DNA of 64,000 nucleotides from Dehalococcoidia bacterium (GCA_034421955.1 DAOUJZ010000075.1:7683-71682); one strand, 5' to 3'; shown: positions 38,388-55,558, numbered from the stretch's first letter. Notes: generated by a model from the sequence alone, not told the origin. A program made the numbers and translations.

Positions 38388-38897
38388 TTACGTGCTCACG
38401 GAGTCCTGAGATCTTCTCAACTTCTTGAGCAATTCCTGGTTGAATGTCTTGTCGCTGAGCCGTCCACTCTCCAATCCTTCAAGGAGGCTTTCTCTAACTC
38501 GCTTCTTCAATATCCTGTGCTTGTCACCTCTGGAGACTATATCTGCCAGAGAAGTAACCTTGTTCGTTGTAAGGTACTGTAAGTCATAATGTAATCCGTT
38601 GATGGCTTCATCAGGGGTTTCACCATCCTTGTGTTCCATACTAAAGAGGGGTGGACTCAATTCTGAACCATCAAACACTACGTAATCAAAGACACCTAAG
38701 CTTTCTCTGGTAGCAGCCAGTGCTATGCTGATGCGCTCTGGGCTAAAGCCTTCAGCTATCTGCCAAATCGAGAGCATTCCATCGGAGGCTGGCAGATCCT
38801 TTAGCACATCGGCCTTGAGTTCGTTCGGCTCTAGCCAGGGTACGTCAGGACTTGTATCCCACCGTCTCTTAACTATGGCTCTCAGGAAGCTGGGCAT
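38388..38897 (-). CDS. hypothetical protein (169 aa), third gene of orphan cassette
   Basis: AT-richer ORF that overlaps the upstream gene by 29 nt. No motif recognised. Confidence 0.6.
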   Translation of the reverse strand: MPSFLRAIVKRRWDTSPDVPWLEPNELKADVLKDLPASDGMLSIWQIAEGFSPERISIALAATRESLGVFDYVVFDGSELSPPLFSMEHKDGETPDEAINGLHYDLQYLTTNKVTSLADIVSRGDKHRILKKRVRESLLEGLESGRLSDKTFNQELLKKLRRSQDSVST

Positions 38898-40131
38898 TTC
38901 TAGTTGCTGTGAGTTGATCTAGCACGAGTTGAAGGTCGTCCCGGAGCCTGTCAGACGTTTCGAGCCTTTTTGCGCGCTGGAGAGGGTATATCGCCAACGG
39001 ATCATCCATGGCAGCTATTCCGAGCGCGGCGCAATCACGTACTCCAATCTGCTCTGACCAAAGATGGTCAATCAGCAAAGACAATCGGCTCTGGCTAGTA
39101 GGATTGTGGTCGATGGCCCCAAGCTGGAGAAGACACTCCTCCTTAACGTCCGAGCTCATGTCCACGTGGGCCAGTACCCTCGCCAGTTCAACCATAGCAT
39201 CATTGCTGTAGGTCCTTATGAGGAAGTGTAGGGAACGGGAGAGCATTGACTCCATTCCATATTCAAACACTTCCTCCGATCCGTCTCGCAACGCTCTCTC
39301 AAGCTCTGACCGCACATGTTTTCGACTTAGAACATGCTCCTTAAGGTCCGTCCCAGGGATGTCCATGGGAGTGTGCATATTAACTGAGCGGAAGAAGTCA
39401 TCAGTTTGTCGGAGGTACCCAATTGAATCTGCCTTCGGACTAGATGATACGTTTGCTAGGAGACTAACGGCGTTGGCCAAAGCCGACTTTACTCTACCGA
39501 CACCGTGTTGCCATGCTGGTGAAGGAGAAGTGCCGCTTACCATGCCTTCAGTCGGATACCTAGTAACGTTCTCAATCCGGACTTCAACCTCTTCGGGTTC
39601 ATGCCAAAGGTTTAGGAGCCTCTGTTTCATGCGCCCGGCATGAGTTGCGCCCGGATTATGCGACGCCGCGATCAGCGGTCCAACTGGCCAACTCATTGCC
39701 TGGCTGGCCAGAAGACTGCAGTGAACTATGTCTCCATATGCTACAGCGGACATCTGGCTGACAGGTAGAGAGGGGCCGTATCGATCAGACTTAGCACTAG
39801 GCACCAACCAATTTGACGCGGCATTTAACCATTGTCCCGTAGATCCAATAGCATCAGCTTCCGTTTCTGGGGCTGACCTGGGAAAGTTAGGGCTATTTAC
39901 AGTTCCGAGAATGCAAACCACGTAGTCGCCCTTAACTACCTCATAGAGGTCCGCAGCAGCAACAGACTTGATCGAATCGCCTTCTCCATGAATTGGGAAG
40001 CGAGCGTCTTCGCCAAGCTCTATTGAAGGACTCCATATCTTGGACAGGACTGCGTCATCTATGTTAGTTGACGACTCGGTCGGAGGAAGCACTTGGTTGT
40101 CAACTGGGGCAGTACCAACTGAATTCATCAT
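38869..40131 (-). CDS. hypothetical protein (420 aa) with HEAT-like C-terminal repeats
   Basis: The C-terminus IGVRDCAALGIAAMDDPLAIYPLQRA resembles PBS-lyase HEAT-like repeats. The N-terminal 250 aa are unassigned. 4-nt ATGA overlap with the upstream gene. Confidence 0.6.
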   Translation of the reverse strand: MMNSVGTAPVDNQVLPPTESSTNIDDAVLSKIWSPSIELGEDARFPIHGEGDSIKSVAAADLYEVVKGDYVVCILGTVNSPNFPRSAPETEADAIGSTGQWLNAASNWLVPSAKSDRYGPSLPVSQMSAVAYGDIVHCSLLASQAMSWPVGPLIAASHNPGATHAGRMKQRLLNLWHEPEEVEVRIENVTRYPTEGMVSGTSPSPAWQHGVGRVKSALANAVSLLANVSSSPKADSIGYLRQTDDFFRSVNMHTPMDIPGTDLKEHVLSRKHVRSELERALRDGSEEVFEYGMESMLSRSLHFLIRTYSNDAMVELARVLAHVDMSSDVKEECLLQLGAIDHNPTSQSRLSLLIDHLWSEQIGVRDCAALGIAAMDDPLAIYPLQRAKRLETSDRLRDDLQLVLDQLTATRNAQLPESHS

Positions 40132-40904
40132 GCCACGTCGCCCTTTTGTGCAATCTCCTTCCCCAAAGTCACTAACTCGTCAAACAAAGCGGAGAGTTGC
40201 TCCTGTGGAAGACTTAGATATGTGGTTGCGACTGTATTGATGTCTAATTCTAAACTACCGGCAAACGCTTGGGTTACCGGAGCCGAAAGGACAGTCTCAA
40301 TAGCATTTTGGTCAGACTGTACAGCAAATGAGCCCGTTGCCTGAGTAGCGACTGACCACTTTGACAGTCGATTGATCCCAAGCTGTGGAACAACTGTTGA
40401 TTCTCGCCTACGATTGATCTGGTAGAAGAAGTCAAGAGACTTCTCCAAGTCTATAGTGACGTTGCTCAAGTATTCACTGAGCCTCTTATGAGCGTCTTGC
40501 ATGTCGCTGGCAGGTCGAACCAAAGTCGCCCCGAAAGCTATTCGTGCGACTTGGAGATCATTGCTGAACCATCGGGAAGCCATCTCGGAAAGCGTCTGCA
40601 GGGCGTCTTGGAATGACAGAGTTTGCCAGTCAGACGCTGTGGAGGGTGTGCCCAGATTCTGGATAGTTGGTTGGAGGAAGAAATCCACCCTCGGATGGGC
40701 TACGCGCATCAAGGCCGTGAGATCTGCAAGGCGTCCGACCTGCTGAAACAACCCCTCCCGTGGTCTGCGCTGTTCCTCGTCCGGAACCCCACCAATCACC
40801 GTGTCCCATATGGAGTTGGCATCGACCTCGGCCTCGGCACGTAAGAAGGTGGTAAGCCGTAGCCTAAGCGCTTGCCATTTTGTAGGCTTCGTCAAGTTAA
40901 CCAT
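40128..40904 (-). CDS. hypothetical protein (258 aa), first gene of orphan cassette
   Basis: Long uninterrupted ORF in the AT-richer segment. No confident family assignment. Confidence 0.6.
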   Translation of the reverse strand: MVNLTKPTKWQALRLRLTTFLRAEAEVDANSIWDTVIGGVPDEEQRRPREGLFQQVGRLADLTALMRVAHPRVDFFLQPTIQNLGTPSTASDWQTLSFQDALQTLSEMASRWFSNDLQVARIAFGATLVRPASDMQDAHKRLSEYLSNVTIDLEKSLDFFYQINRRRESTVVPQLGINRLSKWSVATQATGSFAVQSDQNAIETVLSAPVTQAFAGSLELDINTVATTYLSLPQEQLSALFDELVTLGKEIAQKGDVA

Positions 40905-41043: not shown

Positions 41044-42051
41044 TCACGAGGTAACGCCCGCCAACCTTGGCGGGCGTTTCGCATAGCTGTCCCTTATGGC
41101 CTGCGTCACATTCGACGACGAGGCGATCCTGTCACTCATCATGCGTCCGTTGCACCCTCGCCTGAGGATCCCGCAGACGTGATGGCCTTCGCGTCGCTGG
41201 GGAGGTCGAATCTCTCTACACCAGGAGCAAGCCGAGTTAGTGCAGGCGATGTCTCGGAGCAGGCGCACGAGTCGGCCCGCCTCCGGGAACTGGTAGCGCA
41301 CCCGCGGCGGCATCACCGAGTTGCTGCCGGAGACCGACAGCCACGCCAGGGCGTAGGCCAGCGGCCAGCCGCGTCGGGAGACGTCAGCCATCACCTCGCG
41401 TGTGTGCGTGGTGCAGGCGTTGCCGTCCAGACGGGAGTGAATTGCGTGTACAGCCTCCGCGTCCGACGGCCTCGGGGAGCGCCGCAGCACTTCGAATACA
41501 CCGTCGAAGCCGGCTCCGGCGTCGATACTGGTGAGCCAGTGCCAGGCGGTCAACAGATCCGGGTTCGTTTCGCGCAACTTCCTCTGCTGATTGGCGAAGA
41601 CCTCCAGGGTCAGCCTGGCGTCCAGCTCCGGGTCGTTGATTCGCCCACGCACGAGCTGGCCGTCCTGGTAGTGCTTCACGAGGTGGTGGTACGGGTTGCG
41701 CGGGTAGGCGAGTGGGTTGAGCATGAGGGTGTCCACGGCTGGCAACCGCAGAAGCCGCAGGTTGGGATTCGCCGCCCGCAGGTGGGGAAGATCGAACGCG
41801 ATGAGGTTGTGGCCGAGCAGGAATTGGGCGCCTTCTGCGAGGCCATCCAATTTGTCGAGCGCCGCATCGAAACTGCGGCGTCCCGCTGGAAATGTCACGC
41901 GCTCGCCGGTGTCAGGGCGTACGCCTGCGAAGGCCCGGATCCTCTTATCCTCGACGGTTACTTCGAGGTCGAGCGAGAGGCACCGGCGCAAGAGGCGTTC
42001 GCTATCGCCTGCCTGTGGCGCTCGATTCTTCGGGGACGAGGTGTTGACCAT
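41044..42051 (-). pseudogene. DEDD (DnaQ-like) 3'-5' exonuclease domain, apparent 5' fragment of a larger exonuclease-helicase gene
   Basis: LSLDLEV...LLGHNLIAFDLPHL exonuclease motifs, then a Cys cluster CTNSACSWC. After that the sequence becomes Arg/Gly-rich nonsense and ends at the compositional boundary. Confidence 0.55.
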
Positions 42052-44377: not shown

Positions 44378-44427
44378 TTTCCAGTGTGGGGTGTGGTGGC
44401 GTATGCTACTGCGCGGGGTTATGGACT

Positions 44428-45396
44428 ATGCCAAAGATCGAGTTCGACATGGAGCCGAGACCGCCGTACGATTTCGCGCTTACGGCGGCGTACGTGACGC
44501 ATTTTCAGCGCCGGTATGCGGCGGAGTCGTTCGAGGATGGGGTGTTCCGTCGGCTGCTGGACCTGGACGGCCGCGTGGCGCTGGCGGAGGCGCGGTCGGC
44601 GGGCGGGCCGGACGCGCCGCGGGTGGAGGTGTCGCTGCGGGGCGATGGCCTGGACGAGGGGTGCGTCGAGGCGGCGCGCGCGCAGCTTGCGTTGCTGCTG
44701 GGCACGGAGGACGACGTGCGGCCCTTCTACGAGATGGCCCGGGCGGACGACGCGCTGGCGCCGCTGGTGGAGGCGCTGTACGGGCTGCACGTGCCGCAGG
44801 CGGCGTCGGTGTTCGAGGCGCTCACGCTGTCCATCATCGGGCAGCAGATCAGCGCGCAGGTGGCGCGGGTGCTGCGCGGGCTGATCATCGAGACGTTCGG
44901 GCGGCGGGCGGAGTTCGACGGCGAGGACTACTGGGCCTTTCCGCGCGCGGAGGCGGTCGCGTCGGCGAGCGTAGAGGACCTGCGCGGACTGAAGCTGAGC
45001 CAGCGCAAGGCGGAGTACGTGCTGGGGGTGGCGAAGAGCGTGGCGTCGGGCGAGCTGGACCTGGAGGGCCTGCGCGGCCTGCCGGCGGGCGAGGTGGTGG
45101 AGCGGCTGACGGCGATTCGCGGCGTGGGGCCGTGGACGGCGCACTGGCTGCTGATAGGCGCGCTGGGCGAGCCGGACGGGTTCCCGTCGGGGGACCTGGC
45201 GCTGCAGCGGACGATGGGGACGCTGGTCGGCGACGGCGCGCCGATGGCGGCGGGGGACGCGCTGGCGTACTCGGAGCGGTGGTCGCCGCATCGGAGCTAC
45301 GTGACGACGTACCTGTTCGCGGCGGCGCGGGCTGCGCGGTGGCGGGAGGGATTATCCACGAAGGGCACGAAGGGACACGAAGAGGGGGAAGGCTAG
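44428..45396 (+). CDS. HhH-GPD superfamily DNA glycosylase (AlkA-like)
   Basis: IRGVGPWTAHWLLIGALG...GDLAL (HhH plus catalytic Asp). Start at ATG 44428. The last about 14 codons are encoded by a repeat element. Confidence 0.8.
   Translation: MPKIEFDMEPRPPYDFALTAAYVTHFQRRYAAESFEDGVFRRLLDLDGRVALAEARSAGGPDAPRVEVSLRGDGLDEGCVEAARAQLALLLGTEDDVRPFYEMARADDALAPLVEALYGLHVPQAASVFEALTLSIIGQQISAQVARVLRGLIIETFGRRAEFDGEDYWAFPRAEAVASASVEDLRGLKLSQRKAEYVLGVAKSVASGELDLEGLRGLPAGEVVERLTAIRGVGPWTAHWLLIGALGEPDGFPSGDLALQRTMGTLVGDGAPMAAGDALAYSERWSPHRSYVTTYLFAAARAARWREGLSTKGTKGHEEGEG
45351..45388. repeat. CACGAAGG-type repeat element (copy 2), forms the 3' end of the alkA-like ORF
   Basis: ATTATCCACGAAGGGCACGAAGGGACACGAAGAGGGGG encodes ...STKGTKGHEEGEG before the stop. 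Confidence 0.8.
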
Positions 45397-45412: not shown

Positions 45413-45462
45413 ATACAATCGCCGGGAGACTGGCCCCATACAATCGCCGGGAGACTGGCCCC
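45413..45462. repeat. perfect 25-bp tandem duplication
   Basis: ATACAATCGCCGGGAGACTGGCCCC at 45413-45437 and again at 45438-45462. Confidence 0.9.
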
Positions 45463-45517: not shown

Positions 45518-46381
45518 ATGGCAGACGTTTATCCGGAAGACAAGTGGGTGGAGGTGAACGGCCTCAACCTGCATTACCTGGACTGGGGCGGCGACATGAC
45601 GAAGAAGCCGCTGATACTGATGCACGGCATCGGCGGGCACGCGCACATGTTCGACGAGTTCGCGCCGCACATGACCGACAAGTGGCACGTCATCGCGCTG
45701 GACGCGCGGGGCTGCGGCGACAGCGAGTGGAGCCGCGGCGGGTACTCGACGCAGGCGTTCGCGTCGGACGTGGGACTGTTCGCCCAGAAGCTGGGGCTGT
45801 ACCCGTTCGACTACTACGGCCACTCCCAGGGCTCGCGCATCGGCATGCCGCTGGGAGCGTACTACGGCCACCTGGTGGACCACCTGGTGCTGGGGGACTA
45901 CGGCCCGGTGCCGGACCCGTCGCCGAGCGGGCGGGACACGGCGGCGCGTCGGCTGCAGAGCAGCGCGGCGCCAAAGCCGAAGGGCTTTTTCAATCCGGAG
46001 ATGGCGTACGCCTGGTACAAGGAGCAGAACCCGGACTGGTCGGACGACCGCATCAACGACACGATCCGGCACACGCACCGGACGAACTGGGACGGCATCC
46101 TGGTTTCGAAGACGGACCCGGAGATCTCGTGGCTGATGGGTCGGACGGCGCTGAAGGAGGGGCCGTTCCTGAAGGACTGCGTGAGCAGGATTTCGTGCAA
46201 GACGCTGGTGCTTCGGGGGGAGTCGAGCACGGTGCTGGACGCGGCGCAGGCGCGGGAGATGGAGGCGGCGATACCGAACGGCAACGGCACGTTCGGCGAG
46301 GTGCCGGGCGCGGGGCACGGGCTGCACAGCGAGAACATGGGCGAGACGGTGCGGATAGTGCGGGAGTTTTTCGGGACGTAG
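45518..46381 (+). CDS. alpha/beta hydrolase
   Basis: HGIGGH oxyanion region, GHSQGS nucleophile elbow, C-terminal GAGHGLH. Confidence 0.85.
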   Translation: MADVYPEDKWVEVNGLNLHYLDWGGDMTKKPLILMHGIGGHAHMFDEFAPHMTDKWHVIALDARGCGDSEWSRGGYSTQAFASDVGLFAQKLGLYPFDYYGHSQGSRIGMPLGAYYGHLVDHLVLGDYGPVPDPSPSGRDTAARRLQSSAAPKPKGFFNPEMAYAWYKEQNPDWSDDRINDTIRHTHRTNWDGILVSKTDPEISWLMGRTALKEGPFLKDCVSRISCKTLVLRGESSTVLDAAQAREMEAAIPNGNGTFGEVPGAGHGLHSENMGETVRIVREFFGT

Positions 46382-46389
46382 GGGCTAAC
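46342..46389 (+). repeat. 48-bp direct repeat, copy 1 (3' end and stop of the hydrolase gene)
   Basis: CGAGACGGTGCGGATAGTGCGGGAGTTTTTCGGGACGTAGGGGCTAAC. Confidence 0.9.
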
Positions 46390-48043
46390 AATCCGGCAGG
46401 TCGAGTGACGACAGGTCGTTGTCGGCCACGTCCTCGAGGTGCTGCGGGATGCAGCCGGTGAGAGAGTTGCCCGACAGCCTGAGCGTCTCCAGGTTAGAGA
46501 GGAGCCCCAACTCTGCCGGTATCGTGCCGGTCAGGGAGTTGCCGGAGAGGTCCAGCGTCACCAGAGCGGAGAGTTCCCCCAAAGAGGGCGGTATCGTTCC
46601 GTCCAGGCCCTCGTCGTCGAGCTCCAGTTCCGCAACACGCGTGGAGCTTGCATTGAGAGACACGCCCTCCCATGTGGCGATGGTCCTATCCACGCTCCAG
46701 TCAAGCGGTGTGGTACCTGTGAGCGTGTCCTTCAGCCGTAGCAGCGTGATGCAGTCGCGCATGAGGCCGGGGTTGTCGGCCTGGTCGGGCACTGCGAGGC
46801 CGCACGGCGGGGGCGGTTGCACGGGCGGCCCGCCGGGGTGGTCGTAGGCGCCGACCTTGGGGTCGGAGAAGAACTCGCGCAGCCGGTTGGCGTCGGTAAC
46901 CAGCATTGGAAAGCTAGGGTCTGGGCGGGTTCGCCCACCGTTTGCGGTCACACGCGCCTGGTGGGCGGCGGTCACCGCCTGGGTGAAGGCGGGCAACTCC
47001 ATCTCCAGCTTGGAGCGGTGCATTTGAAAATCTTCGGGGTCGCCAGCAAAAAAACCTCTGTGCGGATGAATCGCGATTACTGTGCCGTCGTCCCGGCGCT
47101 CGACGTTCCAAGTCCTAAAGACTTTCCAGGCTTCGACAGAAACGTCCACCGCCGGTCCAACAAAAAGGATGGCCTCCCTGCCCTCAATGGGGCTTATCTC
47201 AAAAGGCCCAATCTCCCCACCTTCAATCAAGGCACGTTCCCATATGCTCTTGATCTCATCTGTTTCTGCTTCTCCCCAAGTATCTGGGTAAAGGTCATGC
47301 GCCACCTCTACGGCCAATGCTGAGGGACCCGAGCCGAGAACATAAGCGTTCACACGCACATCGGCGTAGCACTTCACTATAGGAGACTCTCTTGTGAGCC
47401 TGAATCCATCCGGGCCGACATAGGACGGAGGGCGAAAGCGGTCACCGGAGCCGCAGCGCACGGTGCCTGGGAGGTAGGTGCCACGCAGCACGATGTGGGC
47501 CACGAAAGTGTCGGATCTACGCTCCAAGAAGTGCTCCATACCAAATGGTACGTCGCCGACATCGATCATCGACGCTCCGATTGCGACTCGTGGCTTCCAG
47601 CCAGGCTCACACGGGTCCACGGAGGAGCCGGGCGCTGGGGTGCAGGGGGGTATCTCCTCGGTAAGATAGGATGGTCCTGGGACAGGTGTCGAGGTCTGCG
47701 TGGAGACGGGAGTTGGTGTGGGAGACGGTTCGGGTGTTGCAGTGGGTGCGGTCACCGCGCTGGGTGTGGGCGCAGGGGCAAGCTTCGGCGTCGGGACGGG
47801 CGGGGAGGTCGGCGTCGACGTGGGGACGGGTATAGAGGTTGGCGTTGGCGTTGGCGTCAGGATGGGCCCGGAAGTGGGAGGAAGCGCCGGCTCAGGCGCA
47901 GAGGGCGCGGCGGCGGCAGTCGGCGTTGGTGGGGAGGTTGGCGTGGGGGCGGGCGTGGGCTGCCCGCCGGCGCAGGCGGCGAGGGCGAACGCGGCGGCGG
48001 CGAGGATTACGGCGGACAGCGTAGCGCGGGGCACTATGCGCAT
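46385..48043 (-). CDS. lipoprotein with Pro/Thr-rich linker, unknown central domain and C-terminal plant-type leucine-rich repeats
   Basis: Signal plus lipobox AFALAACAGG, a long PTPTS-rich tract, and LRRs LDGTIPPSLGELSALVTLDLSGNSLTGTIPAELGLLSNLETLRLSGNSLTGCIP. Confidence 0.8.
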   Translation of the reverse strand: MRIVPRATLSAVILAAAAFALAACAGGQPTPAPTPTSPPTPTAAAAPSAPEPALPPTSGPILTPTPTPTSIPVPTSTPTSPPVPTPKLAPAPTPSAVTAPTATPEPSPTPTPVSTQTSTPVPGPSYLTEEIPPCTPAPGSSVDPCEPGWKPRVAIGASMIDVGDVPFGMEHFLERRSDTFVAHIVLRGTYLPGTVRCGSGDRFRPPSYVGPDGFRLTRESPIVKCYADVRVNAYVLGSGPSALAVEVAHDLYPDTWGEAETDEIKSIWERALIEGGEIGPFEISPIEGREAILFVGPAVDVSVEAWKVFRTWNVERRDDGTVIAIHPHRGFFAGDPEDFQMHRSKLEMELPAFTQAVTAAHQARVTANGGRTRPDPSFPMLVTDANRLREFFSDPKVGAYDHPGGPPVQPPPPCGLAVPDQADNPGLMRDCITLLRLKDTLTGTTPLDWSVDRTIATWEGVSLNASSTRVAELELDDEGLDGTIPPSLGELSALVTLDLSGNSLTGTIPAELGLLSNLETLRLSGNSLTGCIPQHLEDVADNDLSSLDLPDC

Positions 48044-48159
48044 CCTTCGAGCCGGGGTTGGTGGTTCGGCATTGGGGCGACGATATCATACATAGGCGCA
48101 TCTCACATCACGAAACTCACAGCCAGGGGCAACCCGTGAGGAACGCTAGTCTCCGCGGA

Positions 48160-48207
48160 CGAGACGGTGCGGATAGTGCGGGAGCTTTTCGGGACGTAGG
48201 GGCTAGC
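48160..48207 (+). repeat. 48-bp direct repeat, copy 2 (orphan gene-tail relic)
   Basis: CGAGACGGTGCGGATAGTGCGGGAGCTTTTCGGGACGTAGGGGCTAGC, with 2 mismatches to copy 1. Confidence 0.9.
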
Positions 48208-48275
48208 GCTCCGCTTGCCTACTCTCCCTCAGGATGAGGGCGAACCGCGCACGTCCCAACCGCGGCCCCTGATTC

Positions 48276-48797
48276 CTAAAGGCTCCGTCCTTCCAGTGCT
48301 CTGTCGCATAGGTAACTGAACGAGGCTCGAACGATTCGACGGCATTCGCTATTCAACAGGCTTACATACTCGGTCGTCCACGCATCTGAGAAGCCCTTGT
48401 CGCTAAGGGCTTCCAGCAATACATTATGGCTCGGTTTTCTGCCTATAAGCCGACTGGCAGGAACCAACACCCAGCGTGGCGTGGGGAAGCTGATGGCCAA
48501 TCCAAAGTAGCCCTCAACGCCAGGCGAGTCGATCAATGAGGCCAAATCTTCGTCCGTCAGTTGGCGCGGACGTGGGCCTAACACCTCGGCTTCAATCTCA
48601 AAGAGAAGTTCGTCCGTTCCTCCAATCGCGACAATATCTGGATGACCCGTGCGATTGATAGCTTCCACTCTGTAACCAAGTCGCAGGAGTACATGGGCGG
48701 CCAAGGCTTGCACTTTGTATCCAAACTCAGATGGCGAAACGCTCAGGCGCAGACTCTCAATACAATCTGAGGCATGGAGCGACGCTGCATCATTCAT
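48276..48797 (-). CDS. 173-aa protein with PD-(D/E)xK-like (Mrr-type) core motif
   Basis: LLRLGYRVEAINRTGHPDIVAIGGTDELLFEIEAE has a helix, strand, PD and hhhE-x-E layout. ATGAATGA overlap with the ATPase gene. Confidence 0.5.
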   Translation of the reverse strand: MNDAASLHASDCIESLRLSVSPSEFGYKVQALAAHVLLRLGYRVEAINRTGHPDIVAIGGTDELLFEIEAEVLGPRPRQLTDEDLASLIDSPGVEGYFGLAISFPTPRWVLVPASRLIGRKPSHNVLLEALSDKGFSDAWTTEYVSLLNSECRRIVRASFSYLCDRALEGRSL

Positions 48798-50865
48798 ACC
48801 GTATCTTCAAGGTTGGCCCCTCAGTGGGTGACCACCCTGTGGGCTCAACAATAACGTAACCAGCCTCGTCGAACACTTCCGGTATCATCTCCTGAAAGCG
48901 CTCCGTTTCTTGTGAGGCGACGATCAGTTGTACGTTGCGTCCAAGTTCGTGCAGGCGTTCCACTAGAATTCTTATGTGTTCCGTGTCCAGGGCTCGCGTG
49001 GGGTCGTCCAGCATGACAAGATAGACCTCGGTGGGAGTATCCTCGGTCTGGCTGAACGCAAAGTACGGCACGAGGTTCAAGGCGCTCTCTGCCTGGCCGT
49101 TCAGCACGCCCGTCGGGTCTTCCCTTCCAGGCTCCTGACTGCTGGCAACCCTTAGCTGTAGCTTAGGGAGTACAGACTCCGAGATTACCAACTGGTCATA
49201 CCACGGATGCCGTGTCAGGGCGCTGAAGGCATTTGACAGAATATCAGAGACACGAGGGATGTCTTGTGCGAGCTGTTCATTCAAGCAGGTCTCGATTGCT
49301 TCCTTAGTTGCACGAACTGATTCTCCAAAAGAAACCAAGTTGTCATAGGACGCTATAGCACGCTCAAGTTCCCTTTTGCGCGTGTATAGGCCGCTAAGGT
49401 AGCCCTGAATTCGGTGAACCCGGTTCTCTTCATTGAGTTTGTCTAGTTCGGCCTGCTTTGCTCTGAACCATTCCTCTTGGTTGTCTAGCTGAGCCTTGAT
49501 CTCGGCTTCTCTTTCAGCGTGATTCTTGATCGCCTGTTGTACGCTGCTGGTGGCGCTTAGGTTCTTCTTGTCCTCATCGTCGACAAGGTTCATCGCGTTG
49601 GCAAGATCTCGTTTTAGGGATGTCAATTCAGCGACTTGTGCATTGAGCCGACCCTTCAATTCTTGATACTGCTGAAGCTGCGATTCAAGCTCGGCCACCG
49701 AAGAAATGATGGAGTCGCCAGGGTGAGTCACGGTGTCCTGTAGAGCGGACGCCAGACTTTGTCGGTCGTGATTTGAATCGCAGATTGGGCAGGAAACCGT
49801 CTCGGATTCATCGCGCCCAATTAGCTCAATCGCGTCCTGTAATATCCGCCCCTGTATGGATTCTGTGTCGGCTTGAGCCTTCACTGCTTTGAGGCCTTGG
49901 TACAGTTCATTGGGTGTTCGGTCGCCAAGAACTGAACTCAATTCTGATTGACAGTTTTGGACACAGGCTTCTTGCTCGCTAACCTGCTTTTGACAGCGGT
50001 GCAAGGTCTCCAAGCGCTCCCGCCGGCTGGACAAATTCGTTGCCTCATTCTCCAGACTGCCTTGCTGTTGAGTACGCCTTTTTTCTAGGGAAGCGGCGGC
50101 GCTCTCAAGTAGAGCCTCCAATGACAGACCCACCAATGCTGGCGGATTGCCGGTGACTTCTCTGATGAAGTTGTTTGTCTTTTGTTCGGACGCTGAAATT
50201 GACGGTATGGGTCCGTCGCCCCACGGTGGGGCGTCTAGGATGCGCCTTCTGCGGTTCTCTTGGTCTGCAATTTGGTCATCAATGTTCTTGCGAACACCCG
50301 TGAGTTTTTCGTCTAAATTGTGCTCAGCTTCAGCTTGTTCCTTCAAGAAATCGTCAATGTTGCTGAGTAGCACACGTGGATGCGTAAGGCCGAGATAGTT
50401 GAAGACTGTTCTTTCAAATGGGTCCAAGTCCTCTGGCTGCCGACGGAGTGGAGCAGACTGGGGCGCGAAGATCACGTGTGTCCCTTCGCCCGCATTTACA
50501 GAATCGAGTTGAGGCATAATGTCCCTCAACAGGTGTCTGGTTCCACTTTGGTCGGTGAGGATTCCATCGGCTCTTCCGCGAGTTCCTAAATCCAGTGTGC
50601 GGCGCAGGGTCCATGGTTCCCCGTCGCGCATCAACTTTATCGTGACACGGCAATTGCCCGTGTATCGCTGATTCTTCACAATCTCATTGGTGCGGAACGT
50701 CGACCCAAACAGCCCCCATCGGACAGCTTCCACAATGCTGGACTTTCCGTTGCCATTTAGCCCAAGCAGAAACACGTGGCGTCCTTTGAAGTCAATCGTC
50801 TTGGGAGACGTGAACCCCTTGAATCCTTCTATTTCAACGCCTTGAACAATGAACCCGCGCGCCAT
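48790..50865 (-). CDS. Rad50/SMC/DndD-like ABC ATPase with coiled coil and CxxC hook
   Basis: Walker A LGLNGNGKSS, long heptad-rich middle with CPICDS, signature-like LNGQAES, Walker B/D-loop VYLVMLDDPTRALD. Confidence 0.85.
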   Translation of the reverse strand: MARGFIVQGVEIEGFKGFTSPKTIDFKGRHVFLLGLNGNGKSSIVEAVRWGLFGSTFRTNEIVKNQRYTGNCRVTIKLMRDGEPWTLRRTLDLGTRGRADGILTDQSGTRHLLRDIMPQLDSVNAGEGTHVIFAPQSAPLRRQPEDLDPFERTVFNYLGLTHPRVLLSNIDDFLKEQAEAEHNLDEKLTGVRKNIDDQIADQENRRRRILDAPPWGDGPIPSISASEQKTNNFIREVTGNPPALVGLSLEALLESAAASLEKRRTQQQGSLENEATNLSSRRERLETLHRCQKQVSEQEACVQNCQSELSSVLGDRTPNELYQGLKAVKAQADTESIQGRILQDAIELIGRDESETVSCPICDSNHDRQSLASALQDTVTHPGDSIISSVAELESQLQQYQELKGRLNAQVAELTSLKRDLANAMNLVDDEDKKNLSATSSVQQAIKNHAEREAEIKAQLDNQEEWFRAKQAELDKLNEENRVHRIQGYLSGLYTRKRELERAIASYDNLVSFGESVRATKEAIETCLNEQLAQDIPRVSDILSNAFSALTRHPWYDQLVISESVLPKLQLRVASSQEPGREDPTGVLNGQAESALNLVPYFAFSQTEDTPTEVYLVMLDDPTRALDTEHIRILVERLHELGRNVQLIVASQETERFQEMIPEVFDEAGYVIVEPTGWSPTEGPTLKIRYE

Positions 50866-50870
50866 TGTCT

Positions 50871-51071
50871 TTAGCTCCCTTCAAGCCGTTCGAGTTGGCT
50901 TCTCACATTACTCTCAAGTCGGTCCTTCTCGGCATCCAACCAGGTCTTGACGGCTTCAGGGCCTCCTCTAACGAAATAGTCGGCCATCGTCACCCACAGT
51001 TCTCTGGTCTCTGAAGTCAACTGCTGTGTAACCACCTCGCTGAATGCCTGGTTTGGGTGTGCCTCTGTCAC
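50871..51071 (-). CDS. 66-aa helical protein, first gene of the ATPase operon
   Basis: ORF ends 5 nt before the ATPase ATG and has the same AT-richer composition. Confidence 0.5.
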   Translation of the reverse strand: MTEAHPNQAFSEVVTQQLTSETRELWVTMADYFVRGGPEAVKTWLDAEKDRLESNVRSQLERLEGS

Positions 51072-51232
51072 TTGCTACTCCTTGGTGCTCATCCGATCAT
51101 CCCCTAATGCCGAAACAGCTAGATTTGCATTTGGCAACAGCACAAGCTTACCACGCAGTTGCACTTCTTGCACATTCTCAACTTTAGTCACAGGATAGTA
51201 GGCGTAATGAACGCAAAATGACACACCCCCCT

Positions 51233-51259
51233 GGGTTCCCGCGTTCGTGGGAACGACGG
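51233..51259. repeat. family-B hairpin element
   Basis: GGGTTCCCGCGTTCGTGGGAACGACGG, stem GTTCCC/GGGAAC, preceded by a C6 run. Confidence 0.75.
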
Positions 51260-51318
51260 TAGGGAAGGCGAAAATGAGGATACGCCAGCCGGCAACGACG
51301 ATACGCCACCCCGCTCAT

Positions 51319-51346
51319 GGATTCCGGCTCGGGGGCCGGAATGACG
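51319..51346. repeat. family-B hairpin element
   Basis: GGATTCCGGCTCGGGGGCCGGAATGACG, stem ATTCCGGC/GCCGGAAT. Confidence 0.75.
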
Positions 51347-51469
51347 TTTGTGGGGCCGCCTAGCAGTCTGACACAGGCTCCACGCCCGCCGCCGCTTGCC
51401 CGCGTGCACGTTAAGGCGTATGCTACTTTACGCATTTCCAATTGCCAGAAACGTGTGGAGGATACCCAG

Positions 51470-53110
51470 ATGAACGTTCTTGAAGCGGTGGCGCGCATCC
51501 TGAAGATGGAGGGCGTGGAGTGGATCGCCTGCTTCCCGTCCAACGAGCTGATCGAGGTGGTGGCGCGCGAGGGCATACGCACGATCATGTTCCGGCAGGA
51601 GCGCGGCGCGGTGATGGCGGCGGACGGCTACAGCCGCATGAGCAATCGCGAGGGCTTCGGCGTGATCATCACGCAGGGCGGCCCGGGCTCGGAGAACTCG
51701 ATGGGCGGCCTGGCGCAGGCCTACGCGGACAACGTGCCGGTGCTGTATCTGCCCGGCGGTCCGGCCCTGGCCCAGTACTCCGTGCAGCCCAACTTCTCGC
51801 CGGCGCGCACCTACCAGAGCGTGTCCACCCACAGCGAGGTGCTGTTCAAGGCCGACCAGGTCGGGAACGTGATGCGTCGCGCCTTCCACGCGCTGCGCAA
51901 CGGCCGGCCGGGTCCGGTCATCGTGGAGATACCCGCCGACATCGGCCCGCAGGAGGTGCCGGAGTCCGCGATGGCATACCAGCCGCCCAAGCGCAGCCCG
52001 CAGGCGCCGGCGCAGTCGGACGTGCGGGACGCGGTGAAGCTGCTGCTGGGTGCGAAGAAGCCGGTCATCTGGTCGGGCATGGGCGTGCTGTTCTCCGACG
52101 CCACCGCGGAGCTGCGCGAGCTGGCGGAGCTGGCCGAGGTGCCGGTCTACTGCACCATGCCGGGCAAGTCCGGGTTCGACGAGCGGCACCCGCTGTCGCT
52201 CGGCTCGGGCAGCGGCGCGACCGGTCTGCACGCGCGGACGTGGCTCCAGGAATCGGACGTGCTGATGGCGCTCGGCTCCAGCATGACGCGCACCAGCTAC
52301 GGCCAGCCGATTCCGGACGGCAAGGTGATCATTCACAACACCGAGAGCATCGAGGACCTCAACAAGGACTTCACGGTGGACGTGGGGCTACCGGGCGACG
52401 CCAAGCTGACCATCCAGATGCTGATAGACGAGGTGAAGGCGCAGGCGGGCGAGAACGGGCGCCGCGGCCAGACGGGAGTCCAGGACGAGATCGCCGAGGT
52501 CAAGGGGAAGTGGTTCTCGGAGTGGAAGGACCTTCTGGACTCCGAAGACACGCCCATCAACGTCTACCGCGTGATAGGCGAGCTGGAGCGCGTGCTGGAC
52601 CACGACAACAGCATCGTGACGCACGACGCGGGCGCTCCGCGCGACACGATAATGCCCTTCTACACCGCGACCACGCCGAACAGCTACATCGGCTGGGGCA
52701 AGACGACGCACCTGGGGTACGGCATACCGCTGATGATCGGCGCGAAGCTGGCCAAGCCGGACAAGTTCTGCCTCAACTTCATGGGCGACGGCGCGTTCGG
52801 CATGTCCGGGCTGGACGTGGAGACGTCGGTGCGCGCGGGCGCGCCCATCACCACCATCGTGCTCAACAATGGGGGCATGGCGACGTATCCGGGCGGCTAC
52901 CCGACGGCGCGCGAGCTGTACGGCGTCACGCACATGGGCGGCGACTACGCGAAGATAGCCGAGGGCATGGGCGCCGTGGGCATCGTGGTGTCGGAGCCGG
53001 GCGAGGTCGCCAGCGCGCTGGAGGAGGCCAAGCGGCTGAACGCCGAGGGGCGGACGGTGCTGCTGGACGTGCGGAGCGGGATGGAGGCGCGGCGGTCGCG
53101 GTTCGAGTAG
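51470..53110 (+). CDS. thiamine-diphosphate-dependent enzyme (acetolactate synthase / oxalyl-CoA decarboxylase superfamily)
   Basis: N-terminal Pyr domain (GGPGSENSMGG) and C-terminal GDGAFGMSG...NNGG TPP motif. Start at ATG 51470. Confidence 0.85.
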   Translation: MNVLEAVARILKMEGVEWIACFPSNELIEVVAREGIRTIMFRQERGAVMAADGYSRMSNREGFGVIITQGGPGSENSMGGLAQAYADNVPVLYLPGGPALAQYSVQPNFSPARTYQSVSTHSEVLFKADQVGNVMRRAFHALRNGRPGPVIVEIPADIGPQEVPESAMAYQPPKRSPQAPAQSDVRDAVKLLLGAKKPVIWSGMGVLFSDATAELRELAELAEVPVYCTMPGKSGFDERHPLSLGSGSGATGLHARTWLQESDVLMALGSSMTRTSYGQPIPDGKVIIHNTESIEDLNKDFTVDVGLPGDAKLTIQMLIDEVKAQAGENGRRGQTGVQDEIAEVKGKWFSEWKDLLDSEDTPINVYRVIGELERVLDHDNSIVTHDAGAPRDTIMPFYTATTPNSYIGWGKTTHLGYGIPLMIGAKLAKPDKFCLNFMGDGAFGMSGLDVETSVRAGAPITTIVLNNGGMATYPGGYPTARELYGVTHMGGDYAKIAEGMGAVGIVVSEPGEVASALEEAKRLNAEGRTVLLDVRSGMEARRSRFE

Positions 53111-53137
53111 CCATGCGTGTGTGAAGGGCGGCGCGAA

Positions 53138-55558
53138 ATGACGGCAGCGCTTTCGCACCTGCGCGTGCTCGACCTGACCGGGCCGGGCGCGCAGTACTGC
53201 GGGCGGCTGATGGCCGACCTGGGCGCGGACGTGGTGAAGATCGAGCCGCCACAAGGCGACGCCGCGCGCCACCTGCGTCCCTTCGCGGGGGACGAGCCGG
53301 GGCCGGAAGGCGGCATCCGGTTTCTGCCGCTCAACGTCAACAAGCGGAGCGTCGCACTCGACCTCGGCGACGAGACCGGCAGGCGTCGCTTCGAGGCGTT
53401 GGCGCGGACGGCGGACGTCCTACTGGACGACGGCTCGGCGTTCGCACTGGACGAGCTGGGGCTGGGCTATGACGCGCTGAGCCGCGCCAATCCGCGCTTG
53501 GTGTACGTGACGATTACGCCGTTCGGGCTGAGCGGTCCTTACAGCGGCTTCCTGTCCGGCGAGTTGATTGTGCAGGCGGCCGGCGGGCTGATGTACGGCT
53601 TCGGCGATCCGGACGAGCGGCCCGCGATGGCTCCGTTCTCTCCCGGCCACCAGCTAGCGGCCCAGCACGCGGCGTTCGCGGCGCTGGCGGCCGTCCGGCA
53701 CCGCGCCGACTCGGGGCGCGGCCAGCACGTCGAGGTGTGCGTCCAGGAGGTGCTGGCGAACATCCTGGCCTACTTCGGTCGGTACGCCTCCGACGGGCAG
53801 ATCAACCGGCGGCCGGGGGGCAGTCCCACCATCGCGCCCACCAACACCTACCCGACGAGCGACGGATTCATCTACATGCAGCCCACCTTCCCGCGCCACG
53901 TGGACGCGCTGTTCGAGTGGCTGGACAACCCGGTGCTGGAGGACGACCTGTGGAAGGACGCGGCGTTCCGGCGGCAGAACGGGGACGTGCTGAACGACAT
54001 CATCTCAGAGTTCAGCATGGGCTTCACGAAGATGGGGTTCGCGGAGGAGGCGCAGCGGCGGCACATCCCCACCGCGCCGCTGATGACGATTCACGACCTG
54101 ATGCAGGACGACCACCTGGCGTATCGCGAGTTCCTGGTGGACGTGGATCATCCGGTGGTGGGGAAGTATCCGACGCCGACGGGGGCGTTCCGGATGGGGG
54201 CGAGTCCGTGGCGGCTGTACCGTCCGCCGCCGCTGCTGGGCCAGCACACGGACGAGGTACTTGCGGAGTGGGCGGCGGACGAGCCGCTGGGCGGCCAAAC
54301 CCGTCATTCTGAGCTTGTCGAAGAATCTCAGCCGGATTCCTCGGCTGCGCTCGGAATGGCAGAGCCGCCGCTGCCCCTGAAAAACACTCGGGTGCTGGAC
54401 TTCAGCCGGGTGTGGGCGGGGCCGTACATGACGCGCTACCTGGCCGAGCTGGGCGCGGAGGTCATCAAGGTCGAGTCCAACATGCTGCCGGACAGGCAGC
54501 AGGCGCGGGGGCCGTTCGCGTCGTTCAGCTTCGTGGAGATCAACCGCAGCAAGCGCTCGGTGACGCTGAACATGCGCTCGCGGGAGGCGGTAGAGCTGTG
54601 CGAGCGGCTCATAGGCCTGTGCGACGTGGTGGTGGAGAACTTCCGGCCCGGCGTGCTGGACGGCTGGGGAATCGGCTACGAGCGGCAGCGCGAACTGAAC
54701 CCGGACATCATCTACATCAGCATGCCGGGCATGGGCATCGACGGCCCGCGCGCGTCCGAGCTCGCGTTCGGGCAGAGCCTGCTGGCGTACACGGGCGCGA
54801 TGGGCATCTGGGCGCAGCCTGAGTCCCCCGGCATCACGCGGCCCAAGGTGCCGCTGCCGGACTTCTACGGCGCGGCGACGGGCGCGTTCGCGGCGCTGGC
54901 GGCGCTGGAGCTGCGCGACCGCACGGGGCAGGGCCAGATGATCGAGCTGGCGCAGCTAGAGGCGCTGGTGGCGACGATGGGGGAGGCGTTCCTGGACTAC
55001 TTCTTCAACGGCCACGTCCCGGAGGCGAGGGGCAACTGGGATGCGAACGCGGCGCCGCATGACGTGTTCGAGTGCCTGGGGTTCGACTCGTGGTGCGCGA
55101 TCGCGTGCTACACGGACGAGCAGTGGCGGCGGCTGCGCGGCGCGATGGAGGAGCCGGAGTGGGCGTCGGATGCGAAGTTCGACACGCTGGAGGGCCGGCT
55201 GGCGAACCTAGACGAGCTGAACACAAGGCTCGGCGAGTGGACGTCGGACATGACGGCGCGCCAGGTGATGCGGCTGCTACAGCGCGAGGGCGTGCCGGCG
55301 GGAATCGTGGCGAGCGGGGAGGACCTGTACCACGACGTGAACCTGCGTGCGCGGGACTACGTGGTGACGGTGGACCACCGGCCGGTGGGGGAGGTGCACG
55401 AGCACCCGGGCGCGACGGTGCGGCTGAGCGACACGCCGAGCCGGGTGATCGCGGGGTGCCCGCCGCTGGGGGCGGACAACGGGCACTACTTCGGCGAGCT
55501 GCTGGGGCTGACGGGGGAGGAGATCGCGCGGCTGGAGGGGGAGCGGGTTATCTATTGA
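53138..55558 (+). CDS. tandem-domain family III (CaiB/BaiF) CoA-transferase
   Basis: Two complete modules: LRVLDLTGPGAQYCGRLMADLGADVVKIEPP...GQHTDEVL and RVLDFSRVWAGPYMTRYLAELGAEVIKVES...GADNGHYF. They are joined by a repeat-derived linker. Confidence 0.85.
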   Translation: MTAALSHLRVLDLTGPGAQYCGRLMADLGADVVKIEPPQGDAARHLRPFAGDEPGPEGGIRFLPLNVNKRSVALDLGDETGRRRFEALARTADVLLDDGSAFALDELGLGYDALSRANPRLVYVTITPFGLSGPYSGFLSGELIVQAAGGLMYGFGDPDERPAMAPFSPGHQLAAQHAAFAALAAVRHRADSGRGQHVEVCVQEVLANILAYFGRYASDGQINRRPGGSPTIAPTNTYPTSDGFIYMQPTFPRHVDALFEWLDNPVLEDDLWKDAAFRRQNGDVLNDIISEFSMGFTKMGFAEEAQRRHIPTAPLMTIHDLMQDDHLAYREFLVDVDHPVVGKYPTPTGAFRMGASPWRLYRPPPLLGQHTDEVLAEWAADEPLGGQTRHSELVEESQPDSSAALGMAEPPLPLKNTRVLDFSRVWAGPYMTRYLAELGAEVIKVESNMLPDRQQARGPFASFSFVEINRSKRSVTLNMRSREAVELCERLIGLCDVVVENFRPGVLDGWGIGYERQRELNPDIIYISMPGMGIDGPRASELAFGQSLLAYTGAMGIWAQPESPGITRPKVPLPDFYGAATGAFAALAALELRDRTGQGQMIELAQLEALVATMGEAFLDYFFNGHVPEARGNWDANAAPHDVFECLGFDSWCAIACYTDEQWRRLRGAMEEPEWASDAKFDTLEGRLANLDELNTRLGEWTSDMTARQVMRLLQREGVPAGIVASGEDLYHDVNLRARDYVVTVDHRPVGEVHEHPGATVRLSDTPSRVIAGCPPLGADNGHYFGELLGLTGEEIARLEGERVIY
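54302..54359. repeat. two family-B elements forming the inter-domain linker of the CoA-transferase ORF
   Basis: CGTCATTCTGAGCTTGTCGAAGAATCTC (54302-54329) and GGATTCCTCGGCTGCGCTCGGAATGG (54334-54359). Confidence 0.8.

Follow-up and report, generated by a model that had tools for sequence, protein, structure and literature searches.

Lamassu is an anti-phage system with a Rad50-derived, SMC-like ATPase, LmuB, and with its genes in the order effector–middle component–ATPase (LmuA–LmuC–LmuB). In the published mechanism, the effector is sequestered and is freed upon the sensing of DNA ends. LmuB proteins are of two types: the short type has ~600 amino acids (aa) and a Walker B motif of the form hhhhD[QSTE], while the long type has ~800 aa, a single CxxC and a Walker B of the form hhhhDD, and is the closest to SbcC (Haudiquet et al. 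2025). The window analysed here – a 64,000-nucleotide (nt) stretch of DNA from a Dehalococcoidia bacterium (GCA_034421955.1, DAOUJZ010000075.1:7683–71682) – contains a set of three minus-strand genes, the triad, that looks like an undescribed relative of Lamassu. Its genes, in order of transcription, are A (a small helical protein), B (an ATPase) and C (a nuclease-like protein). We lean towards reading the triad as a horizontally mobile, Lamassu-like module for nucleic-acid surveillance, probably in defence. No description of it was found in the searchable literature, a scope that did not take in the ABC-ATPase classification of Krishnan et al. 2020, which may mention the clade.

The three genes are packed as one operon. 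In the window, a 5-nt spacer (agaca) separates the stop codon of gene A from the ATG of the ATPase gene, and the start of gene C shares an 8-nt overlap, ATGAATGA, with the stop of the ATPase gene. An earlier account of the window, made from the sequence alone (the sequence-only reading), had described this packing, the AT-richness of the segment, its position between an inserted leucine-rich repeat (LRR) gene and a metabolic block, and the motifs LGLNGNGKSS, CPICDS, LNGQAES, VYLVMLDDPTRALD and LGYRVEAI/GHPDIVAIGG/LLFEIEAE. The gap, the overlap and the gene boundaries proved exact, every motif is present, and the G+C content of the islet is 0.50–0.55 (ca. 48.2–51.2 kb) vs 0.65–0.74 on both sides, with 0.52 vs 0.65–0.72 for the islet taken as one.

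Homologues number 349 for the ATPase and 275 for the 173-aa protein, and nearly all are full length. A scan of the genome collection with the single 173-aa sequence gave no matches, and patterns derived from alignments were needed; the wide alignment (A5) was too diverse for deriving them. An alignment-guided scan, with one genome per species, identified 26 loci; order and orientation of the triad are identical in all 26, with the small flanking genes kept beside the ATPase gene throughout. Co-occurrence of this kind had been proposed as a check in the sequence-only reading. The loci come from at least six bacterial phyla, in metagenome-assembled genomes (MAGs) of Dehalococcoidia, other Chloroflexota, Caldilineaceae, Binatia, Latescibacterota, Vicinamibacterales (Acidobacteriota), Gammaproteobacteria and Paracoccaceae (Alphaproteobacteria). 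Gene junctions are tight throughout (−23 to +9 nt), and the identities of A, B and C to the window copy co-vary (r = 0.83–0.92 among 21 intact loci). Clustering of the neighbouring open reading frames (ORFs) found no fourth gene conserved with the triad. The three genes have been inherited and have diverged as one translationally coupled unit.

The triad family is wider and older than the branch found in the window. A relative with 21% identity has the same arrangement (77, 712 and 172 aa) and adjoins a terminase remnant. A metagenome scan with the most divergent branch (GRPD...ExK) yielded 26 loci, ca. 18 of which are long enough to show the triad; these have a gene of 70–90 aa, then an ATPase gene of ~725 aa, then a gene of ~170 aa. 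In Thermoplasmatota archaea, the three proteins have 76, 724 and 168 aa. One outlier of the metagenome loci (L061, 337–3985) lacks an SMC-like ATPase; there, a 1003-aa ORF that resembles a DNA methyltransferase/type IIG enzyme is followed by a truncated relative of the nuclease, of 137 aa. Chance ORFs or decaying pseudogenes in an AT-rich spacer would fit the atypical composition and nothing else, and that explanation, to which we give next to no probability, is already refuted by the hundreds of full-length homologues of each gene with conserved motifs, the strict synteny and the confident structure models.

The ABC ATPase encoded by gene B is of the Rad50/LmuB type; its coiled coil is short and bears a CPxC zinc hook. 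The protein matches SMC_N (1.3e-14) and AAA_23 in Pfam, and its best PADLOC model is LmuB (PDLC03859, 1.7e-27). The divergent ATPase of locus L043 matches LmuB from end to end (E=6e-45, profile positions 4–598 of 611). In NCBIfam the window protein matches Rad50 at 3.5e-19; the best score is 68 bits where the cutoff is 700, and for none of the NCBIfam Rad50 models does the score come near the cutoff. In the AlphaFold2 (AF2) model (pLDDT 79), a split head (residues 1–160 and 552–691) carries two helical arms of ~190 residues each and an apical hook, with the CPxC at the apex of the coiled coil. The first Foldseek neighbour of this model is Chaetomium Rad50 (7zr1, 2e-16) and the next is Salmonella LmuB (9hqx_B, 1.5e-12); hinge-type SMC proteins, MukB and JetC are further down the list. 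A sequence search of the PDB reaches Rad50 but not the solved LmuB chains. The assignment as a Rad50/SMC-like zinc-hook ATPase, made beforehand from the motifs, thus holds in Pfam, NCBIfam, motif conservation, AF2 and Foldseek alike.

Several positions of the ATPase are invariant in the family (Table 1), and Q136 is another; most of them, the two Asp of Walker B included, are so throughout the superfamily as well. In the divergent ATPases, too, Walker A is found at residue 35; their one CxxC is close to residue 379, and Walker B reads hhhhDDP. The Walker B/D-loop segment aligns with LLILDEPT..LD of Rad50, with the catalytic Glu replaced by Asp relative to Pyrococcus furiosus Rad50. At the position of the Rad50 switch His, the window family has an invariant Gln (Q652), and a few other branches have His. 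The Asp for Glu in Walker B, together with the Gln for the switch His, suggests a slow, switch-like ATPase. The ascending arm of the coiled coil is interrupted by a PPW...P...S insertion, where the AF2 model has a helix break at 212–222. The insertion is found in the window branch and in L034 but not in the archaeal branch, and it may be a partner-docking site.

The gene C protein stands alone; it is a PD-(D/E)xK protein of the Hjc type and has a conserved D...E-x-E/K site, predicted to bind metal. The AF2 model (pLDDT 84, pTM 0.83) folds as alpha-alpha-beta-beta-beta-alpha-beta-beta; its nuclease core is at about residues 20–115, and two to three short helices form a C-terminal extension at about 126–168. 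All Foldseek matches in the PDB are PD-(D/E)xK proteins. Archaeal Hjc is the top match (prob 1.0, TM 0.5–0.59 on the Hjc chain), followed by SPARDA nuclease domains, splicing endonucleases, RecU/PrfA and HincII, and the viral library BFVD returns Hjc- and RecU-type resolvases. While the window's 173-aa protein has no Pfam match at E<=1, the divergent homologue from L043 passes the gathering score of Pfam Hjc (PF01870; 24.0 vs 21.1 bits). Searches of PDB sequences with the small-protein and nuclease profiles gave nothing significant. In the sequence-only reading, the protein had been taken for an Mrr/restriction-endonuclease core; the PD-(D/E)xK fold stands, but it is Hjc-like and not Mrr-like. 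A profile search of 1.84 billion representative proteins resolved the family into 106 clusters, all of at most 215 aa, which means that the gene C protein is never a domain of a larger protein.

Twenty-eight members of the window branch share K28, Q30, H35, G51-H-P-D54 and F66-E67-x-E69, and G26, Q30, P53 and D54 are invariant in the wide family. In an hhalign comparison with P. furiosus Hjc, the counterparts of D54, E67 and position 69 are D33, E46 and K48 (pairwise E = 0.0013, probability 18%, supportive and not decisive), and the same offset of 21 places G26 and Q30 on Hjc G5 and E9. The numbering of the Hjc sequence used reproduces the published catalytic residues. The D and E-x-K positions of the two proteins thus align, with an identical 13-residue spacing, as do fold and topology. 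Gene C differs from Hjc in several ways: Gln is invariant in place of the helix-1 Glu, the window branch has Glu for the catalytic Lys, an additional helical extension of ~55 residues is found at the C-terminus, and the gene is always coupled to the ATPase operon. E-x-E had been noted earlier where E-x-K was expected, and divergent branches do have Lys at position 69, giving a canonical (E/Q)-x-K; judged from these alignments, the E-x-E of the window is a branch-specific substitution in an otherwise canonical site.

The product of gene A is a small helical protein of a conserved orphan family, encoded directly before the ATPase. It has 62–70 aa in each of the 26 loci and a family motif, F10...L25-W26...F33-x-R35-x-G37-P38; this constancy of length and motif marks the 66-aa ORF as a true gene. 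The small proteins of all branches, including those of 70–90 aa from divergent and archaeal loci, align collinearly, and a profile search found solely proteins of 66–87 aa, one of which carries the label of a Thermoplasmatota archaeon. The window protein has no match in Pfam, PADLOC, NCBIfam or the PDB. Comparison of 18 and of 20 family members with the LmuC and LmuA models gave nothing beyond a single marginal LmuC match, in one of the 20 (E=0.018), at the level of chance matches to NsnC, JukB and CARF. That match failed to recur, and the LmuC lead was dropped. The divergent and archaeal small proteins (L038–L060, L064–L067) have a strongly basic, Lys/Arg-rich C-terminal tail, such as PKKKKRKTRR, that is missing from the acidic protein of the window. 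Its sequence suggests a nucleic-acid-binding extension that may have been gained or lost between branches.

Table 1. Positions of the triad, its conserved motifs and nearby features (window coordinates unless a locus is named)
Feature	Position	Strand	Basis or remark
Gene A, 66-aa acidic helical protein	50871..51071	minus	GTG start; AAGGAG Shine-Dalgarno 7 nt upstream
Gene B, 691-aa Rad50/LmuB-like SMC-type ABC ATPase	48790..50865	minus	ORF, profile and structure matches
Gene C, 173-aa Hjc-type PD-(D/E)xK protein	48276..48797	minus	AF2 model, Foldseek
Low-GC islet holding the triad	48214..51250	none	composition profiles
B: Walker A, G35-x-N-G-x-G-K41-S-S43 (in LGLNGNGKSS)	50737..50763	minus	invariant in 27 members and across the superfamily
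B: PPW...P...S insertion, residues 213–226	50188..50229	minus	P214, W215, P221, S226 invariant
B: zinc hook, C359-P-I-C362 (in CPICDS)	49780..49791	minus	C359, P360, C362 invariant in family and superfamily
B: signature-like LNGQAES, residues 588–594	49084..49104	minus	LNGQxES invariant; aligns with P. furiosus Rad50 LSGGE
B: Walker B and D-loop, VYLVMLDD621-PTRALD627 (VYLVMLDDPTRALD)	48985..49026	minus	D620, D621, P622, D627 invariant
C: putative active site, G26-x3-Q30, G51-H-P-D54, E67-x-E69	48591..48722	minus	invariant in 28 members
Direct repeat D1, 57 nt, two copies	46339–46395 and 48157–48213		91% identical; copies the hydrolase gene 3' end
LRR gene	46385–48043		flanked by the D1 copies
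Tandem duplication D4	45413–45462		two copies of ATACAATCGCCGGGAGACTGGCCCC
Second low-GC islet	38388–40904 (and 41044–42051)	minus (three ORFs)	G+C 0.51 vs 0.65–0.70
AlkA-like glycosylase gene	44386–45396
Fpg glycosylase gene	L032:14393–15337
HhH-GPD glycosylase gene	L064:1535–2185

The closest described systems to the triad are those of Lamassu/ABC-3C/DdmABC, the long type above all, with which it shares a Rad50-derived, SMC-like ATPase with a short coiled coil. LmuB is the best curated model of this ATPase and its second-best structural neighbour. The single CxxC and the hhhhDD Walker B (VMLDD621) are those of the long Lamassu type, a small accessory gene lies directly upstream of the ATPase gene in the position of LmuC, a nuclease is the third component, and the set is patchy in distribution and mobile. 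The differences are as clear. At every locus examined the order is small protein–ATPase–nuclease, the effector is a stand-alone protein of ~170 aa without an LmuA-type C-terminal domain, the accessory protein has 66–90 aa vs ~160–250 aa for LmuC and no significant similarity to it, and the ATPase, at 691–730 aa, is between short and long LmuB in length. The sequence-only reading had seen no match to any canonical architecture; order and partners do differ, but the triad is closer to Lamassu than was implied, given the full-length LmuB match in the divergent branch. In PADLOC, run on the three proteins as that reading had proposed, the ATPase alone maps to a named system, LmuB. The Foldseek search of AF2 models, also proposed there, returned a nuclease fold for the 173-aa protein and a Rad50/LmuB-like ATPase.

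These likenesses are also what would be expected if the triad were a member of an existing Lamassu subtype in which LmuA and LmuC had diverged too far for the 2023 PADLOC models. The LmuB match, the long-type motifs, the small upstream gene and the one marginal LmuC match all speak for such membership, which we nevertheless consider quite unlikely: the order A–C–B is found at no locus, the nuclease has 165–185 aa in all 106 clusters and in none is fused to an LmuA-type domain, no LmuA match was found by PADLOC in 28 gene C family members (E<=10), the LmuC match is at chance level, no LmuA chain is among the top 50 structural neighbours of the nuclease, and sequence searches with the ATPase reach Rad50 and not the solved LmuB chains.

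Wadjet (JetABCD), PARIS (AriAB), Gabija and Septu also pair an ABC/SMC-family ATPase with a nuclease in immunity against mobile genetic elements. Matches of the triad to them are weak, covering the Walker A region alone or having E>=0.008 (JetC), and the triad has no hinge, kleisin, KITE, Toprim or HNH partner; a zinc hook replaces the hinge. SbcCD/Mre11-Rad50 is similar in combining a zinc-hook ABC ATPase with a nuclease, Rad50 is the top neighbour of gene B both in structure and in PDB sequence, and gene A sits where, relative to SbcC, the C-terminal, SbcC-binding segment of SbcD is encoded. However, no Mre11/SbcD calcineurin-like phosphoesterase is present in the triad operon or its flanks, gene B has a far shorter coiled coil and substitutions for the Walker B Glu and the switch His, and the triad is accessory and mobile rather than core. 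The absence of an Mre11/SbcD, Toprim, kleisin/KITE or Cap4 partner, as described from the sequence, agrees with Pfam and PADLOC, which find none in the operon or flanks.

Several features mark the triad as dispensable and as moving between genomes. Its G+C content, 0.46–0.57, is below that of the flanks (0.53–0.70) in 34 of 34 loci, whatever the host phylum. Insertion sequence (IS) elements with terminal inverted repeats and transposase coding interrupt two loci, one within the ATPase gene (L004, 8521–9397) and the other between the ATPase and nuclease genes (L014, 9164–10001), and frameshifted or truncated copies are found in L007, L015 and L023. In Binatia (L015, L030, L031), the ATPase is divided between two overlapping ORFs (527 and 183 aa). 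A complete-chromosome assembly and an independent Logan contig (6 samples) have the identical split, which is therefore a genuine frameshift or split gene rather than an error of sequencing. One MAG holds two divergent copies of the triad (L007 and L016). In archaea, an identical small protein occurs in two differing neighbourhoods, one with a PemK toxin and an IS605 TnpB/resolvase beside the triad and the other with PIN-VapB and a Schlafen-type helicase. Across the loci, the neighbours include toxin-antitoxin genes (BrnT/BrnA, HicA, MazE, PIN-VapB, PemK), mobile elements (DDE, IS605 and Mutator transposases, a resolvase, a terminase fragment) and an AAA-ATPase/PDDEXK_9 protein, and at some loci MADS, methyltransferase, HEC-06 or PDC-S39 matches are found within 2.4 kb; this context favours the defence reading. 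Foreign G+C content, disruption by IS elements and frameshifts, duplicate copies and variable context show that the triad is a dispensable, horizontally moving accessory module, a misfit for a housekeeping function.

This mobility bears on a second explanation, that the triad is a mobile DNA-repair or recombination module, an analogue of SbcCD/Mre11-Rad50 with an Hjc-type resolvase in place of Mre11, whose substrates would be hairpins, stalled forks or junctions, in the service of the host or of an integrated element. Rad50 as the top structural and sequence neighbour and the resolvase-type fold of the nuclease both favour it, as do the DNA glycosylase genes found 2–8 kb from the triad in three unrelated contexts (Table 1), which may be coincidence. 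We think this explanation unlikely, with the patchy distribution across phyla, the persistently foreign composition, the copies broken by IS elements and frameshifts and the duplicate divergent copies in one MAG all against it. Moreover, archaeal hosts already own a separate, bona fide Hjc, its gene lying near the triad, and the attenuated ATPase site resembles those of LmuB sensors, not of repair motors. No repair gene is a conserved neighbour. Conservation beside replication or repair genes had been named in advance as an outcome that would tell against a defence system; what was found is variable contexts, rich in mobile elements and toxin-antitoxin genes.

The same neighbours raise the question of a selfish addiction or maintenance cassette, in which a toxin-like nuclease would be restrained by the ATPase and the small protein and would bring about post-segregational killing with no benefit to the host. 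A compact mobile islet, repeatedly beside toxin-antitoxin modules and transposases, and a potentially toxic nuclease encoded with a small acidic protein are features of the triad that it would account for. Yet a 700-aa, zinc-hook, DNA-sensing ATPase far exceeds what an antitoxin needs, and the family was not found in the plasmid and phage collections. In addition, the ATPase alone is frequently inactivated with the nuclease intact (L004, L015, L023), which argues that the nuclease is not constitutively toxic. We regard the cassette as highly improbable.

Other observations weigh against a Lamassu-like defence module as well. Neither partner of the ATPase, in 28 and 38 family members, is recognisable as a Lamassu component by the LmuA and LmuC models. 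The two substitutions in the gene C site of the window branch, Gln for the helix-1 Glu and Glu for the catalytic Lys, mean that nuclease activity is not guaranteed; an analogous E-x-E site, that of BamHI, is active. The family was not found in phage, plasmid or viral-contig collections, the viral contigs having been scanned with alignment A1 and the plasmids and phages searched by tblastn of the ATPases, which gave three weak P-loop matches or none, and there is thus no link to the known defence hotspots on mobile elements. Strong PADLOC neighbours (MADS mad2/3/8, type II and DruM-like methyltransferases, HEC-06, PDC-S39, TnpB/Cas12f), or canonical defence neighbours, are present at a minority of loci alone. 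Many of the nearby genes are metabolic paralogues (Bac_luciferase, CoA_transf_3, thiamine pyrophosphate (TPP) enzymes, amidohydrolases). Among the 141 nearest ORFs within 2.4 kb of the triad, pooled from 29 loci, the Pfam counts were 6 for Bac_luciferase, 4 for CoA_transf_3, 3 for PIN and 4 for transposases.

A sensor–effector mechanism for the triad can be proposed from the one established for Lamassu, and with it we infer a function in defence. A scaffold of two B subunits, dimerised through the hooks or the heads, would hold C inactive, with the product of gene A as a small adaptor in the position that LmuC has relative to LmuB, or the C-terminal domain of SbcD relative to SbcC. When a phage or plasmid invades, B would sense its DNA ends, hairpins or branched replication intermediates, and the slow, switch-like ATPase cycle of B would release or activate C. 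C would then cut DNA, possibly branched DNA, and either the invader would be destroyed or the infected cell killed. Complex formation, trigger, nuclease activity and immune outcome are all inferred by this analogy. A more specific version, which we hold tentatively, is that the triad is a distinct, unnamed family of SMC-like immune systems, and not a Lamassu subtype, from the lineage that leads from Rad50/SbcC to long Lamassu, in which a zinc-hook sensor ATPase with a minimal adaptor of 66–90 aa licenses a resolvase-type nuclease for the cutting of branched or hairpin replication intermediates of the invader, and which has spread horizontally among co-resident symbionts and into archaea. Many of the host MAGs look sponge-derived.

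In the window, the neighbours of the triad are the LRR protein and an alpha/beta-hydrolase on one side, with the AlkA-like glycosylase further out, and a TPP enzyme and a double CoA-transferase III on the other, as the sequence-only reading had placed it. The 57-nt direct repeat D1, a copy of the 3' end of the hydrolase gene, brackets the LRR gene, which marks that gene as a separate insertion between the hydrolase and the triad. The left edge of the islet is at most ~60 nt from the second, relic copy of the repeat. A scan for sigma-70 promoters and intrinsic terminators gave nothing above shuffled expectation, in an organism that is probably outside the scope of the scan, and Rfam gave no match. 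CoA-transferase III and/or TPP-enzyme genes are directly upstream of the triad and divergent from it in the window (51317–55558) and in L015, L011, L033, L032 and L007, from several phyla, and luciferase-like monooxygenases are found within 10 kb of the triad in 8 loci. These recurrent neighbours could reflect the abundance of paralogues or a preferred insertion neighbourhood. A functional link to them was judged unproven, as they are non-universal, variably placed and, in these lineages, from large paralogous families.

There are two further features of the window outside the triad. The intergenic region between the AlkA-like and hydrolase genes has a perfect 25-nt tandem duplication (D4). 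A second low-GC islet, ca. 7 kb from the triad, has three minus-strand ORFs (258, 420 and 169 aa), packed tightly with overlaps of 4 and 29 nt, none of them with a Pfam or PADLOC match, and is adjoined by a 335-aa ORF with a weak match to DEDDh exonucleases. This islet may likewise be an uncharacterised mobile module.

PADLOC, Pfam and NCBIfam fail to recognise two of the three genes of the triad, so that the system is probably overlooked in present annotations of symbiont and archaeal MAGs. The triad keeps ancestral, SbcC-like traits – the zinc hook and the DD Walker B – with a resolvase-type effector that is not Mre11. If the immune function is true, it would be the most compact sensor–effector system of the Rad50/LmuB type described (~700 + 66 + 170 aa). 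It would then be a test case for the sequestration and release of effectors by SMC-like sensors, for whether a single helical hairpin can suffice as an LmuC-like adaptor, and for the origin of Lamassu from SbcCD.

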